From a virus (taxonomy: Duplodnaviria > Heunggongvirae > Uroviricota > Caudoviricetes), in IMG/VR virus record IMGVR_UViG_2681813268_000003, positions 1 to 6,870 of that record: a DNA stretch of 6,870 nucleotides. One strand, given 5' to 3'. Below the pieces are notes generated by a model. The model did not search any database. It was given only the letters and a program-made list of their open reading frames with translations, and was not told the origin of the DNA. This document shows, in pieces, positions 2,317 through 6,870 of the stretch. Position 1 is the first letter of the stretch. Each line of letters opens with the position of its first letter. Made by a program: the position numbers and the translations under genes.

Positions 2317-3003
2317 ATGACCCCAATAAACATATTTATGACAGTTGCTGATTTCAAACGGCCCAAATTGGAGCTCCCAAACGGGGCAAACAAACTACTA
2401 CTGCACTCTTGCTGTGCTCCATGTTCCGGTGAGGTGATGGAGGCGCTTCAGGCCTCGGGAATCGACTACACCATCTTTTTCTACAACCCGAACATTCATC
2501 CTCAGAAAGAGTATTTAATTCGTAAGGATGAGAATATTCGCTTTGCTGAACAACACGGCGTGCCGTTTATTGATGCTGATTACGACACAGACAACTGGTT
2601 TGAACGAGCCAAAGGAATGGAATGGGAGCCCGAACGAGGGATCCGTTGCACCATGTGTTTTGACATGCGTTTTGAGCGGACAGCGCTGTACGCCGCTGAA
2701 AATGGTTTCAGTGTGATCAGCAGTTCACTGGGCATTTCACGCTGGAAAAATATGCAGCAGGTTAACGACTGTGGGCGGCGAGCCGTCGCGCATTATCCGG
2801 GCATGGTGTACTGGGATTATAACTGGCGCAAGCAGGGCGGCTCGTCCCGTATGATTGAAATCAGCAAGCGCGAAAAATTCTATCAGCAGGAATATTGTGG
2901 CTGTGTGTATTCTCTGCGCGATACCAATCTACACCGCAAATCTCAGGGACGCCCTCTTATCAAAATTGGTCAACTCCACTACGGTAAAGAAGAGAAGGAG
3001 TGA
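2317..3003 (+). CDS. queH: QueH-like protein (DUF208 family, putative B12-independent epoxyqueuosine reductase)
   Basis: 228-aa ORF with N-proximal [11 protein letters not shown] motif and additional conserved Cys (CTMCFD, EYCGCVY), which I recognise as DUF208/QueH hallmarks. No obvious SD; alternative start ATG 2338. Confidence 0.7.
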
Positions 3004-3024: not shown

Positions 3025-3054
3025 TTGATTTCATATTGGCGAGGTAAGTAGAAT
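3025..3054 (+). promoter_or_regulatory. Putative sigma70 promoter of hok/mok mRNA copy 1 (TTGATT -18- TAGAAT)
   Basis: -35-like TTGATT 3025-3030 and -10-like TAGAAT 3049-3054; predicted start near 3060, just before the tac-like element. Confidence 0.4.
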
Positions 3055-3057
3055 GAC

Positions 3058-3072
3058 TGCGGGTGCTTGAGG
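3058..3072 (+). promoter_or_regulatory. tac-like 5' element of hok mRNA copy 1 (TGCGGGTGCTTGAGG), complementary to the fbi-like 3' element at 3443..3458
   Basis: 15 bp pair with 3443-3458 (CCTCAACGCACCCGCA) with one bulged C. Same 5'/3' fold-back architecture as described for plasmid R1 hok mRNA. Copy 2 equivalents at 6400-6414 and 6779-6794. Confidence 0.55.
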
Positions 3073-3104
3073 CTATCTGCTTCAGGCATGAACACCAAAA
3101 GGCA

Positions 3105-3182
3105 GATAGAGAAAAGCCCCAGTTAACATTACGCGTCCGGCAAGACGCTTAACATTAATCTGAGGCCAATTTCATGCTTTGC
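3105..3182 (-). ncRNA. Putative Sok-like antisense RNA of hok locus 1 (extent approximate)
   Basis: Inferred by analogy to hok/sok. Minus strand has -35-like TTGCCT (complement of 3212-3217) and weak -10-like TAACCT (complement of 3189-3194) with 17-nt spacing, pointing transcription antisense across the mok start (3174). 3' end not defined. Confidence 0.25.
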
Positions 3183-3386
3183 ACATGTAGGTTAGCCTCT
3201 TACATGCCGAAAGGCAAGGAGAAGCAGGCTATGAAGCAGCAAAAGGCGATGTTAATCGCCCTGATCGTCATCTGTTTAACCGTCATAGTGACGGCACTGG
3301 TAACGAGGAAAGACCTCTGTGAGGTACGAATCCGAACCGGCCAGACGGAGGTCGCTGTCTTCGTAGACTACGAATCCAGGAAGTAA
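3174..3386 (+). CDS. mok: Mok-like regulatory ORF, in frame with and containing hok (70 aa)
   Basis: ATG 3174, same frame as hok. Same in-frame arrangement as I recall for E. coli MokC/HokC. Confidence 0.5.
   Translation: MLCTCRLASYMPKGKEKQAMKQQKAMLIALIVICLTVIVTALVTRKDLCEVRIRTGQTEVAVFVDYESRK
3231..3386 (+). CDS. hok: Hok/Gef-family type I toxin (51 aa, single TM helix)
   Basis: MKQQKAMLIALIVICLTVIVTALVTRKDLCEVRIRTGQTEVAVFVDYESRK is near-identical to recalled HokD/HokC sequences. SD AAGGAG 3215-3220 before ATG 3231. Confidence 0.9.
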   Translation: MKQQKAMLIALIVICLTVIVTALVTRKDLCEVRIRTGQTEVAVFVDYESRK

Positions 3387-3463
3387 GAGTGACCGGGCGG
3401 GGAGCTGATCCCATCCCCGCCCACCTCTGATGTGTCAGGCATCCTCAACGCACCCGCACTTAA

Positions 3464-3506
3464 CCCGCCCATCGCTGTGATCTCTCAGCGTTTCGGCGGG
3501 TTTTTT
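3464..3506 (+). terminator. Rho-independent terminator / 3' end of hok mRNA copy 1
   Basis: Two-tier hairpin: CCCGCC 3464-3469 pairs GGCGGG 3495-3500; inner CGCTG 3473-3477 pairs CAGCG 3486-3490; followed by T6 3501-3506. Confidence 0.7.
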
Positions 3507-4178: not shown

Positions 4179-4184
4179 NNNNNN
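4179..4184. other. Run of 6 N: assembly/scaffold gap of unknown true length
   Basis: Literal nnnnnn in the sequence; flanks correspond to positions 1940 and 1942 of the upstream repeat copy. Confidence 0.95.
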
Positions 4185-4412
4185 CGGGTTGACGAAAAAG
4201 AGCGTCAGGTCCGCTGTAAAATCTGCGGTGCGGTTGTGGAGCCGTTTGACTGGATGCTCTCTGTGGCAAAAAGAGAAACCAGACTGGCAGATGATGTAAG
4301 GCTATTGCGCCAGGAGGAACAGGAAAGGCGGAGAAATATAGAAAAGCTGATACAGATTGAGCGTAACGCGAAAGCGCGGATACGCAGGGCGACAAAATCC
4401 AGAACTGAATAA
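4185..4412 (+). CDS. 5'-truncated second copy of the zinc-ribbon/coiled-coil protein (3' 228 nt identical to 1942..2169)
   Basis: Frame-3 translation from the gap edge (RVDEKERQVRCKICGAVVEPFDWML...ATKSRTE) is identical to the C-terminus of the 1813..2169 product. Confidence 0.5.
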   Translation, partial: RVDEKERQVRCKICGAVVEPFDWMLSVAKRETRLADDVRLLRQEEQERRRNIEKLIQIERNAKARIRRATKSRTE

Positions 4413-4498
4413 TTAAATTTAGCACTGTTAAAAATTTAATCCTTAACCGGAGGGATTTCTGCACCCTCAAATCATCAGGAGACCGCCCGAAAGGGCGG
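4185..4498 (+). repeat. Copy B of the 314-bp direct repeat (partner 1942..2255)
   Basis: See copy A. Ends in a GAAA-loop hairpin (4482-4499) that is perfect here but mismatched in copy A. Confidence 0.95.
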
Positions 4499-4724: not shown

Positions 4725-5090
4725 ATGGCACTGACGAAAAAACAACGTGCAGAACTGCGCATGAAGTTCGGTGGTCGCTGCGCTTATTGCGGCTGCGAAC
4801 TTGGCGAAAAGTGGCATGCAGACCATGTAAAACCGGTCATTCGTTTTGATGGAAATATGCTTCACCAGGAACGTGACGATATATCCAACATGGTACCAGC
4901 ATGCCACCCATGCAATCTGCACAAGCATTGCAGTAGCCTGGAAGATTATCGACGAATTATCAGTGATGGTCGTCGTGAATTCCTTGCGTCCGGGAAAGGC
5001 AAAGCGCTGGTTCGTATGGGATTGGTTGAAATGAAATCTGACCCGGTTGTGTTCTGGTTTGAAAAATATCAAGAAGGGGCTACGGCATGA
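4725..5090 (+). CDS. HNH endonuclease-domain protein (121 aa)
   Basis: SD TAAGGAAAG before ATG 4725. HNH signature CAYCGCEL...WHADHVKPV...NMVPACHPCNLHKH. The tool ORF from 4635 has no RBS support. Confidence 0.85.
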   Translation: MALTKKQRAELRMKFGGRCAYCGCELGEKWHADHVKPVIRFDGNMLHQERDDISNMVPACHPCNLHKHCSSLEDYRRIISDGRREFLASGKGKALVRMGLVEMKSDPVVFWFEKYQEGATA

Positions 5091-5752
5091 CCACTATTAC
5101 CAAAGAGCGACTGCAATGGCTGGCTAACATTTCTGGCCGCGATGATATTGACGATATAGACGGCGGTGAAATTCGTGAACTGGCGCTTATCGCTCTGGCA
5201 TCACTGGAAGCAGAGCCTGTAGCGGAATGCATTGTTGAAGATGGGGGCATGTGTATTGACGGGTTCGGTGAGTATGTGGGTCACTCGCTGCCTGATGGAA
5301 TGCATGAGCTTTATGCTGCCCCGCGAATGCGACAACCTGATGGATGGAAAGCCGTAGCTGTAGCGTGGAAGGTGACGTTTACTCAAGTTGACCAGGAATC
5401 TAATACGTTCACTGCTATATATTTTGACAAAGCGGAAGTTGAGTGTTGGGTACGACTGCATAAAGCATGTGATTTTCGGGCAGATATAACACCGCTTTAC
5501 GCAGCGCCGGCAGTGCCGGTTGCAGTAAACGACGACATGGCTTACGCATTCCATCACGCACTGTCAGATTCATCGCTTGGCTCTGATGAAATCGAAGAAA
5601 TTAAAACCGGTTTGCGTGCTGCCTTTGCCAACGTCACTATCCAACCAGAGCCGATAGTGCCGGATGAAATCGGGCCAAACGATAGTAATACGTTTGATTA
5701 TGTTGATGGCTGGAACGCCTGCCGCGCTGCCATGCTTAAGGGAGATAAATAA
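5087..5752 (+). CDS. Hypothetical protein (221 aa), acidic N-terminus, two LYAAP-containing segments
   Basis: ATG 5087 overlaps HNH stop (ATGA 5087-5090). Coding-like composition. No recognised family. Confidence 0.7.
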   Translation: MTTITKERLQWLANISGRDDIDDIDGGEIRELALIALASLEAEPVAECIVEDGGMCIDGFGEYVGHSLPDGMHELYAAPRMRQPDGWKAVAVAWKVTFTQVDQESNTFTAIYFDKAEVECWVRLHKACDFRADITPLYAAPAVPVAVNDDMAYAFHHALSDSSLGSDEIEEIKTGLRAAFANVTIQPEPIVPDEIGPNDSNTFDYVDGWNACRAAMLKGDK

Positions 5753-6117
5753 TGATTAATCGAACCAAACTGGAGCACATTCTCGAATATGCCAGGCAGC
5801 AGAAATGTATTGGGCAACTTTGTAAAATTCCACCAGGAGATATGGTTGAAATCGTGGAAATGGCCATGCGTAAGGCTGGCAACTCTCCGGTAGCTCCGGC
5901 TGGCTGGATAAGCTGTAGTGATGCAGTTCCTGCTGAATATTGCGATGTGATTCTTCTCGATGATCTCGGGAATGTATTCCCCGGTTCCTGGGATAAGGTT
6001 TTTTGCCCCACTCGTGGCGGGAATAAGATGGCTTTTGTGGACAAAGACGGCGTTGAAGTAGAGAGCTCAACTCACTGGATGCCGCTACCGGAACCACCGC
6101 AGGAGGTGAATCAATGA
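5752..6117 (+). CDS. DUF551-like phage protein (121 aa)
   Basis: ATG 5752 overlaps previous stop (TAATG). C-terminal ...THWMPLPEPPQE and WISCSDAVPAEY... resemble the DUF551 pattern found in lambdoid nin regions (from memory). Confidence 0.7.
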   Translation: MINRTKLEHILEYARQQKCIGQLCKIPPGDMVEIVEMAMRKAGNSPVAPAGWISCSDAVPAEYCDVILLDDLGNVFPGSWDKVFCPTRGGNKMAFVDKDGVEVESSTHWMPLPEPPQEVNQ

Positions 6118-6197
6118 CCTGGCCTGAGGCATTCACCACGGTAGGAATTGCGATGGCGGTGGCGCTGGTGGTGTATTCGATTTGCCGTTGGGGTTAA
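6114..6197 (+). CDS. Putative 27-aa hydrophobic micropeptide (MTWPEAFTTVGIAMAVALVVYSICRWG)
   Basis: Below the ORF-track length cutoff. ATG 6114 overlaps DUF551 stop (ATGA), strong SD AGGAGG 6101-6106 at 7-nt spacing, stops 7 nt before a strong terminator. Confidence 0.4.
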   Translation: MTWPEAFTTVGIAMAVALVVYSICRWG

Positions 6198-6207
6198 CAA
6201 ACAAAAA

Positions 6208-6233
6208 CCCCGGATTGATGGTCCGGGGTTTTT
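6208..6233 (+). terminator. Rho-independent terminator closing the HNH-containing operon
   Basis: CCCCGGA 6208-6214 pairs TCCGGGG 6222-6228, 7-nt loop, then T5 6229-6233. Confidence 0.75.
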
Positions 6234-6445
6234 GAAGGAAACAAAACAGAAACAGCAATTGCCGTTACCTGTTGTTACCATGGCAAGTAAACGTATCTCA
6301 GGCGAGCGCATTGCGCCGTTCTGACGCAGATAAACTAGCCTGGATAGATGGTGCTGGCAATAAAAAATAGCGTTTTCTTATCGGTGTCGGTAAGATTGCT
6401 GCGGGTGCTTGAGGCTGTCTGCCTCGGGTATGTCACTGTAAGGCA

Positions 6446-6523
6446 GACAGAGAAAAGCCCCAGTTAACATTACGCGTCCTGCAAGACGCTTAACATTAAT
6501 CTGAGGCCCAATCTATGTCTCAC
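6446..6523 (-). ncRNA. Putative Sok-like antisense RNA of hok locus 2 (extent approximate)
   Basis: By analogy only; the same minus-strand hexamers as locus 1 are conserved (complement of AGGCAA and AGGTTA). Confidence 0.2.
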
Positions 6524-6727
6524 AAATGTAGGTTAGCCTCTTACGTGCCGAAAGGCAAGGAGAAGCAGGCTATGAAGCAGCAAAAGGCGATGTTAATCGC
6601 CCTGATCGTCATCTGTTTAACCGTCATTGTGACGGCACTGGTAACGAGGAAAGACCTCTGCGAGGTACGAATCCGAATCGGCCAGACGGAGGTCGCTGTT
6701 TTCGTAGACTACGAATCTAGAGAGTAA
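6515..6727 (+). CDS. mok: Mok-like regulatory ORF, in frame with and containing hok copy 2 (70 aa)
   Basis: ATG 6515, same architecture as locus 1. N-terminus differs (MSHKCRLASYV vs MLCTCRLASYM). Confidence 0.5.
   Translation: MSHKCRLASYVPKGKEKQAMKQQKAMLIALIVICLTVIVTALVTRKDLCEVRIRIGQTEVAVFVDYESRE
6572..6727 (+). CDS. hok: Hok/Gef-family type I toxin, second paralog (51 aa)
   Basis: MKQQKAMLIALIVICLTVIVTALVTRKDLCEVRIRIGQTEVAVFVDYESRE. Differs from copy 1 at T35I and the C-terminal residue. SD AAGGAG before ATG 6572. Confidence 0.9.
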   Translation: MKQQKAMLIALIVICLTVIVTALVTRKDLCEVRIRIGQTEVAVFVDYESRE

Positions 6728-6799
6728 GAGTGACCAGGCGGGAGAGTAATCTCCCGCCACCTTTGATGTGTCAGGCATCCTCAACGCACCCGCACTTAA

Positions 6800-6819
6800 C
6801 CCGTTTCGGCGGTTTTTTT
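6800..6819 (+). terminator. Degenerate terminator of hok copy 2 (T7 tract with minimal stem)
   Basis: Relative to copy 1, about 25 nt of the hairpin are missing; CCG/CGG with a 3-nt loop remains, followed by T7 6813-6819. Confidence 0.3.
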
Positions 6820-6870
6820 GGTAATGACTCCAACTTATTGATAGTGTTTTATGTTCAGATAATGCCCGAT

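Follow-up and report, generated by a model that had tools for sequence, protein, structure and literature searches.

A 27-codon open reading frame at the end of a lambdoid prophage gene chain is very probably a microprotein gene under selection that reference annotation skips

The last long gene in an overlapping chain of prophage genes is followed, in the 6,870-nucleotide stretch of DNA analysed here (the window), by an open reading frame (ORF) of only 27 codons, and the question raised by this locus is whether so short an ORF is a gene and, if so, what its product may do. Length alone is no guide, since 33 ORFs of at least 20 amino acids overlap positions 5000-6870 and a 27-codon ORF is trivial by that measure. 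The micro-ORF occupies positions 6114..6197 of the plus strand (27 codons and a TAA stop at 6195-6197) and encodes MTWPEAFTTVGIAMAVALVVYSICRWG. Its ATG at 6114 stands 7 nt 3' of a Shine-Dalgarno (SD) sequence, GGAGG (6102-6106, plus strand), which lies inside the last codons of the upstream DUF551 gene, and the two genes share an ATGA start/stop overlap (6114-6117, plus strand) in which TGA (6115-6117) is the stop of the DUF551 gene. The SD is strong and the micro-ORF's own, and the ATGA junction couples the micro-ORF translationally to its upstream DUF551/Ea22-type gene. The original prediction, made from the letters of this DNA, had described a 27-codon ORF with an SD and an ATGA overlap, and all three were found where it had placed them. 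It had further given the peptide a single transmembrane (TM) helix, in agreement with the hydrophobicity of residues 7-24 (Kyte-Doolittle mean 2.1; Hessa sum ~+0.1 kcal/mol). The peptide thus comprises an N-terminal motif, M-T-W-P-E-A-F, a predicted TM segment at approximately residues 7-24 and a C-terminal R-W-G.

The window derives from a lambdoid prophage of the Rac type (YdaU/YdaV-type), and its genes encode a DnaC/IstB-like ATPase, a DUF977 protein, a zinc-ribbon protein, QueH, a DUF4014 protein, an HNH endonuclease, a 221-aa Ea-like protein and a DUF551 protein, most of them with start-to-stop overlaps. On the plus strand, the HNH endonuclease gene (4725-5090; Pfam HNH, E=2e-6), the Ea-like gene (5087-5752) and the DUF551 gene (5752..6117; 121 aa; Pfam PF04448, E=3.4e-19) belong to one overlapping early/accessory chain, of which the DUF551 gene is the last long cistron. 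Two hok/sok loci are present (Rfam sok matches at 3061-3236 and 6403-6577; Pfam matches of the Hok proteins at E=1e-22 to 1e-23), and before the downstream one stands an intrinsic-terminator hairpin (AAAAACCCCGGA...TCCGGGGTTTTT; 6202..6238, usable in both directions) with a 15-bp GC-rich stem and a U-run. The predicted RNA fold of 6202-6234 has a free energy of -23.7 kcal/mol (z=-4.3; 0 of 200 shuffled sequences equally stable). A simple terminator scan flagged this hairpin on the minus strand (13-pair stem, 7 GC pairs), and a plus-strand terminator is also readable. The same arrangement is found in E. coli FDAARGOS_944 at 99.9% identity to the window, where PGAP calls the DUF551 gene and hok and skips the micro-ORF; the upstream gene is annotated as DUF551 in the near-identical prophage of NZ_CP065613. 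Odd protein clusters had raised the idea of a DUF551-microprotein fusion (a Rosetta-stone link), which we rejected as an artefact of partial contig-end translations.

To ask what is conserved at this locus, we compared homologues collected by scanning viral contigs with degenerate DNA patterns that fixed codons 1-7 only, together with phage records found by tblastn. The resulting set held 211 copies (83 distinct DNA sequences), with 193 loci used for context and 69 non-redundant loci for the identity profile. When the window was compared with two prophages that have different flanks, similarity began at the SD/ATG and stopped at the stop codon. Across the 69 non-redundant loci, mean pairwise identity was 0.3-0.46 further upstream of the SD, peaked at 0.82 over the SD (-12..-7), remained at 0.69-0.89 in the part of the ORF that the search pattern left free, and was 0.28-0.34 from the first base past the stop. 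Around the micro-ORF we counted 31 upstream and 30 downstream flank types. The identity profile and the varied flanks together define the conserved unit as the SD plus the ORF, and nothing else.

Conservation of the SD and the ORF in homologous regions was one of the checks that the original prediction had proposed, and both are conserved. A perfect GGAGG lies within -18..-4 at 175 of 193 loci, with four of five bases matching at the other 18, and all 27 codons plus the stop are intact in 206 of 211 copies. Of the other five copies, two have nonsense mutations, two read through a lost stop and one has lost two codons in frame. At 158 of 193 loci the TGA of the ATGA closes an upstream ORF of 50 codons or more; the loci that lack such an ORF mostly have ATGATGA, where an additional ATG comes first and is overlapped by the upstream stop, or carry deletion remnants. 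A start/stop overlap with the upstream gene, whatever its identity, is kept in nearly all loci, and the upstream partners themselves are unrelated: mosaic Ead/Ea22-DUF551 proteins, an Ea22-like protein with a different C-terminus, an L0139-like zinc-ribbon/coiled-coil protein (933W), an 'EaA' protein, and a protein of 114-167 aa that ends in ...GLISVEDILR and has no Pfam match. At least three gene positions occur. In the window the micro-ORF comes after the replication genes; in BP-4795 and PhiR12 it stands at the distal end of the early-left operon, with a few genes between it and xis-int; and in 933W-type Stx phages it belongs to an accessory block at the right end, beside hokW.

Whether the block is kept for its peptide was assessed on codons 8-27, outside the part fixed by the search pattern. 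The 244 changes in these codons fall on codon positions 1, 2 and 3 in the ratio 62/48/134, and the pairwise pN/pS equals 0.39. Counted along a minimum spanning tree, there were approximately 120 synonymous and 124 nonsynonymous events over 16.3 and 43.7 sites, respectively (binomial P=2.7e-13), which gives an event-based dN/dS that is moderate, not strong. An equal frequency of synonymous and nonsynonymous change, which the original prediction had named as the outcome that would speak against a gene, is therefore not what the homologues display (dN/dS ~0.39, P=2.7e-13). Four of the five alternative frames have pN/pS of 0.82-1.81, and in 95-100% of sequences the two other sense frames are interrupted by stops. 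W3, P4, A6 and W26 are invariant among 50 distinct proteins, in which G11, A15, A17, Y21, S22, I23, C24 and R25 rarely vary, and the replacements are chiefly among hydrophobic or small residues. Frame, length and key residues are preserved even in divergent clades with many nucleotide differences (e.g., MNWPEAFTAVGVAIAVAFILYSLFRWG, MSWPDAIVTLGMVFAAAFVVYSICRWG and MTWPEAFTTVGVVMAVAFAVYSVCRWG). MTWPEAFTTVGIAMAVALVVYSICRWG is the commonest variant (53 copies) of what we define, from these sequences, as a core family of 27-aa enterobacterial phage microproteins with the pattern M-[TSN]-W-P-[ED]-A-[FIL] ... Y-S-I-C-R-W-G, of which the peptide of the window is a member.

The fifth alternative frame, the antisense frame that shares its wobble positions with the micro-ORF, requires separate treatment, as it is mostly open and has a pN/pS of 0.36, equal to that of the sense frame. 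Such openness is expected opposite a GC-rich hydrophobic frame. Its rejection as a true coding frame is based only on its changing start and stop: it takes 73 start/stop configurations, lying in non-homologous flanks, across 193 loci, and so is not a conserved gene. The behaviour of this frame is nevertheless one of three observations that fit a block of some 100 bp kept as DNA or RNA, either as a recombination linker between mosaic modules or as an RNA element, with the ORF incidental. Lambdoid phages swap modules at short conserved boundary sequences, the block is flanked by many different sequences, and its 3' stretch, GTGTATTCGATTTGCCGCTGGGG, is very uniform within the commonest clade. Against an incidental ORF, however, the limits of the block coincide to the base with the SD and the stop codon, third-position changes dominate, the frame stays open where the other sense frames are interrupted, and the divergent clades carry many synonymous differences within that uniform stretch and retain Y-S-I-C-R-W-G; no Rfam family matches the block, and neither a start nor a stop is conserved in the antisense frame. 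We therefore consider a non-genic origin of the block extremely improbable.

The variable 3' context bears on a second possibility, in which translation of the ORF matters and its peptide does not, the ribosome acting in cis, in a trailer or leader, to modulate termination or mRNA stability at the operon end. In the window the stop codon is 5 nt from the foot of the strong terminator hairpin, so that a terminating ribosome would cover its 5' arm, and the micro-ORF is usually the final cistron of its gene string. The 30 downstream flank types, however, include different intrinsic terminators, hok/sok without a terminator (56 of 193 loci have hok/sok directly beside the ORF) and a next gene only 8 nt away, and the terminator type of the window follows the micro-ORF at only ~15 of 193 loci. 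The original prediction's remark that the ORF ends just before a terminator thus describes the window well and the family poorly; the hairpin terminates the transcription unit of the micro-ORF ahead of hok/sok and is local context, with no standing as a conserved companion. A positional device would also have no need of purifying selection or of invariant W3, P4, A6 and W26, and phages that differ widely in GC content share the N-terminal motif. The 30 downstream contexts and the selection on the peptide led us to reject the class of cis-acting leader or attenuator peptides, and we regard a role for translation alone as very unlikely. Both the cis-acting and the non-coding linker readings are poorly compatible with the selection pattern and the variable downstream context. 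The micro-ORF stands above chance because the conserved block equals SD plus ORF, because 206 of 211 copies are intact and because pN/pS is 0.39, and we conclude that 6114..6197 is very probably a bona fide microprotein gene under selection.

The product of this gene is likely a single-pass membrane peptide, going by its predicted hydrophobic segment. Across the family the N-terminus is acidic and the C-terminus basic, and because of this charge distribution the positive-inside rule would place the peptide N-out/C-in, with the acidic M-T-W-P-E-A-F in the periplasm and R-W-G in the cytoplasm. W3 and W26 would then sit at opposite membrane interfaces, for which their spacing is suitable. Small residues recur with period 2 along the segment (G11/A13/A15/A17), and the periodicity of entropy is strongest near 170-180 degrees. 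This pattern would fit tight two-sided packing and would fit a homo-oligomeric pore or toxin equally well.

For this last reason, the main rival to a regulatory peptide is a membrane-damaging toxin of the type I-like kind (Hok, TisB, DinQ, ShoB) or a small pore-former that dissipates the membrane potential, an unlikely reading. On that reading the peptide would form oligomers in the inner membrane and help the phage with host shut-off or lysis timing. Size and composition are in the range of known examples (DinQ has 27 aa, TisB 29 aa and ShoB 26 aa), and the alternating small residues G11-x-A13-x-A15-x-A17 suit tight homo-oligomeric packing. The ORF lies directly beside hok/sok in the 56 loci noted above, and one natural in-frame fusion, P0142, joins the first 15 residues of the peptide to a Hok C-terminus. 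The genetic design appears to be a different one, however. Type I toxins are translationally silenced, whereas the SD of the micro-ORF is perfect and exposed and its translation is coupled to that of the gene upstream; Rfam, which would miss an antitoxin RNA of a new kind, shows none at 6100-6240, the sok matches of the window belonging to its two hok genes; and genomes carry the gene intact in as many as seven copies, the ORF being disrupted in only 5 of the 211 copies compared. The Hok/Gef profile (HOK_GEF, PF01848) did not match the microprotein and matched both hok genes of the window at E=1e-22 to 1e-23. More broadly, the microprotein resembles type I toxins (Hok/Gef, TisB, DinQ, ShoB, Ibs, Ldr; 19-51 aa) in being a small hydrophobic helix associated with prophages, and differs from them in lacking a folded-back 5' UTR, a mok-like leader and an Rfam antisense RNA and in having a strong, coupled SD. 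The SD, the coupling, the lack of an Rfam antitoxin RNA and the many intact copies, all read from sequence, argue against the classical type I design; toxicity itself would be compatible with them.

Other small membrane proteins also offer parallels. The inner membrane of E. coli contains several tiny modulators (KdpF, 29 aa; MgtS, 31 aa; PmrR, 29 aa; AcrZ, 49 aa; CydX, 37 aa), the 29-aa SidA of Caulobacter is a single-pass inner-membrane modulator, and KdpF is a tiny cistron translationally linked to its operon. The microprotein shares with these proteins its length, one hydrophobic helix, interfacial aromatic and basic residues, a non-enzymatic nature and omission by gene callers. Unlike them, it is phage-borne and mobile among many contexts and is not fixed beside a target; it belongs to no sequence family shared with them, and its N-terminal M-x-W-P-E-A-F has no counterpart in KdpF, MgtS, PmrR, AcrZ, CydX or SidA. 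The KdpF profile (NCBIfam TIGR02115) scored the peptide at 14.7 bits, a weak resemblance below its cut-off of 26.85, and the context of the micro-ORF is a prophage accessory operon, not kdpFABC. Holin families of Pfam and PHROG gave no match, and the holin, lysozyme and lysis genes of a near-identical prophage are found ~4 kb downstream of the micro-ORF and not adjacent to it; a holin or antiholin identity was rejected on the basis of the missing family match and the position outside the lysis cassette. Small early effectors of phages include lambda Kil (47 aa) and CIII (54 aa), KilR of Rac, DicB and YdfD of Qin, and T4 Stp (26 aa). The microprotein is like Kil, CIII, KilR, DicB, YdfD and Stp in being small, in lying among non-essential early/accessory genes of temperate coliphages, in its expected expression from early operons and in presumably binding a host component, whereas those effectors are mostly soluble or amphipathic and none is homologous to it. 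A large-scale survey (Fremin et al. 2022) reportedly predicted small-gene families of phages, and the microprotein resembles such predicted families in being a conserved ORF of less than 50 aa with a predicted TM helix that annotation misses.

Our overall reading, which we hold with moderate confidence, is of a translationally coupled single-pass inner-membrane microprotein from an early/accessory operon that acts by packing of its helix and N-terminal hook. The peptide would be made together with the early/accessory phage genes as the last cistron of the overlapping chain and would span the inner membrane with one helix formed by approximately residues 7-24. As for other very small single-pass proteins, its most likely action would be non-enzymatic, through helix packing along the small-residue pattern G11-x-A13-x-A15-x-A17 and through the N-terminal hook. 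The packing partner of the helix may be the peptide itself or a larger envelope protein of the host, and the activity of such a host protein may be altered while the early genes of the phage are on; both of these steps are of low specificity. Toxin, regulator and membrane-protein modulator, the roles listed in the original prediction, are all candidates here, and the preference for a modulator that binds a partner over a toxin that damages the membrane is a tentative proposal. Conservation did not concentrate significantly on any one face of the helix (P=0.45), and the partner-binding idea therefore gains nothing specific from this test. Neither domains, structures nor neighbours indicate a molecular target.

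Whether the core family stands alone was addressed by scans with the N-terminus only, which returned approximately 40 other micro-ORFs, on contigs of 31-70% GC, that share only M-[TNS]-W-P-[ED]-A-[FIM] with the core family. In these micro-ORFs the motif is followed by a hydrophobic stretch and then a short charged tail. By a strict definition of a TM-like micro-ORF, 21 of 38 non-core motif matches qualified, compared with 1.0% of ATGA starts in the same loci. A superfamily profile searched against 1.84e9 representatives matched 129 clusters (50% identity) at E<=1e-3, nearly all of 25-55 aa and with the same motif, often with ...AWV.VT.IK. When 50 of the profile-matched sequences were compared with Pfam and PHROG, none matched a family consistently. 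Carriers include an Achromobacter prophage and soil and gut metagenomes. Where the context was readable, the neighbours of the micro-ORFs are small ORFan genes strung together on the same strand with overlapping starts and stops; one micro-ORF is located three genes before xis-int. On present sequence evidence these micro-ORFs look like a real superfamily, with homology as opposed to convergence not proven. The peptide of the window has the features of this superfamily (the motif, one TM-like stretch, a short charged tail, a length within 22-55 aa and a place in a phage gene string), and its gene probably belongs to this larger undescribed family. The part conserved throughout is a short N-terminal hook that probably faces the periplasm, and its conservation suggests that many unrelated phages engage one conserved envelope or membrane-insertion component. 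The full form of this idea is one to which we give somewhat less than even weight: the 27-aa gene would be the enterobacterial branch of a large undescribed superfamily defined by M-[STN]-W-P-[EQD]-A-[FIL], a TM helix and a basic tail, its members of 22-55 aa being encoded in early/accessory gene strings of phages, with the hook engaging that one component.

The distribution of the core family was determined separately for genomes, phages and plasmids. A blastn search with the ORF found homologues in 1705 of 5426 complete E. coli genomes, at 3062 places (73-100% identity) and up to seven places per genome. By tblastn, homologues are present in 94 phage records, including 933W, VT2-Sakai, BP-4795, ArgO145 and rV5-like lytic phages, and in 180 plasmids, mostly non-mobilizable plasmids of ~95 kb from E. 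coli and Salmonella, with one from Klebsiella. Among species-representative genomes, a strict two-anchor pattern matched only E. coli, Shigella flexneri and one small MAG contig, on which account we describe the core family as narrow; this pattern is too strict to reveal the wider superfamily. Protein records of the peptide also come from E. albertii, Shigella sonnei and Salmonella. No homologue was found in the K-12 prophages CPS-53, Rac and Qin, the three compared, and consequently the best small-protein data sets, which are from K-12, are silent on the peptide. Nor was a copy found in lambda 26-46 kb. The peptide sequence was not present in two supplements of EHEC ribosome-profiling studies; early phage operons are repressed in lysogens.

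The ORF had been called unannotated and short enough to be missed by standard ORF callers. The latter is borne out, as RefSeq/PGAP skips the micro-ORF in every record inspected. The former applies to RefSeq/PGAP and to the inspected phage records, in which only the upstream gene is called, but not to GenBank as a whole, where the exact 27-aa peptide occurs in some submissions as a 'hypothetical', 'bacteriophage' or 'prophage' protein (e.g., AOM45384.1 and ASL59396.1). Profile searches of Pfam-A, PHROGs v4 and NCBIfam r20 with the peptide gave no family match, only sub-threshold noise (DUF883_C, PTR2, KdpF, PetL and phrog_4612, the last at E=0.019). A literature search for peptide strings found no relevant paper; its single match, 'NWPEAI', was discarded as an internal stretch of a streptococcal bacteriocin. 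Taken together, the original finding is correct and somewhat stronger than first stated: judged by its sequence record, the microprotein gene is widespread, selectively maintained and systematically missed in reference annotation.

Small membrane proteins of phages are already known as a kind, and predicted families of small phage genes run to thousands; without an assigned function, the microprotein adds one to that number. If it is translated, about one in three sequenced E. coli genomes has a membrane microprotein gene, in one to seven copies, that reference annotation leaves out, and the carriers include Shiga-toxin phages of O157:H7 and many P1-like phage-plasmids. The gene adjoins the poorly understood Ea22/DUF551 gene set, and its signature (an SD, an ATGA overlap and a conserved block bounded by start and stop codon) may be used to recover similar genes. 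Its product is a candidate for an early phage function at the host membrane, whether in host takeover, in exclusion or as a contribution to the lysis-lysogeny decision, and confirmation of the apparent superfamily united by its N-terminal motif would add a new, broadly distributed family of phage proteins.

Motif-bearing relatives of the 27-codon micro-ORF whose start overlaps the DUF551 stop were collected beyond its enterobacterial core family, and this apparent superfamily comprised 129 clusters at E ≤ 1e-3 (loci L017, L146, L156, L164, L172, L196, L252 and others; protein records P0097-P0254). Its members are micro-ORFs of 22-55 aa in which the N-terminal motif M-[STN]-W-P-[EQD]-A-[FIL] is followed by a single TM stretch and then by a basic tail, and the phage contigs that carry them range from 31 to 70% GC. 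Searches of 50 of these micro-ORFs against Pfam and PHROG returned no consistent family match.

In Shigella phage POCJ13 (locus L130), the homologue at 2501-2584 is a pseudogene because its third codon reads TAG in place of TGG, and RefSeq, instead of the micro-ORF, annotates a 42-aa antisense ORF over this DNA. Contig-end fragments of the type GGESMTWPEAF...CRWG (protein clusters 1-3) carry the PGAP name “DUF551 domain-containing protein, partial”; they lie in the micro-ORF frame and are free of any DUF551 sequence, and through this mislabel the micro-ORF peptide was chained into DUF551 clusters at 90% clustering.

A run of six Ns lies at 4179-4184 of the window, and the 314 bp immediately 3′ of it (4185-4498) match the 3′ part of a zinc-ribbon/coiled-coil gene (1942-2255) at 99.7% identity. 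Because of these Ns and the adjoining repeat, the window looks like a scaffold, or two related prophage segments joined, and not one continuous natural sequence. The corresponding place in E. coli FDAARGOS_944, which carries a near-identical prophage, is occupied by ISEc52. The window's left edge holds a truncated YdaU-like replication gene (63-434, + strand) with about 17 glutamate codons in succession at about 150-230; the annotation of FDAARGOS_944 splits its ydaU-family gene into two partial pseudogenes around the poly-glutamate spot. The epoxyqueuosine reductase QueH (2317-3003; Pfam E = 2e-65), a tRNA-modification enzyme, is phage cargo, and its gene sits among prophage early/accessory genes just upstream of the first of two hok/sok type I toxin-antitoxin loci.

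Both hok/sok loci (3050-3467 and 6393-6803) fall within this one 6.9-kb window, share 90.7% identity, and were each assigned by Rfam sok (117-118 bits) and Hok Pfam (E about 1e-22) matches. A natural fusion between the micro-ORF and hok is represented by protein record P0142, a 44-aa protein encoded on a publicly available 19.9-kb E. coli contig and named Hok family toxin by PGAP, in which micro-ORF residues 1-15 (MTWPEAFTTVGIAMA) continue in frame into the last 29 residues of Hok (LVTRKDLCEV...). The fusion seems to have originated by a deletion joining these two neighbouring small genes, and such a deletion would place a Hok-like toxin domain under the strong SD of the micro-ORF, outside mok/sok control.
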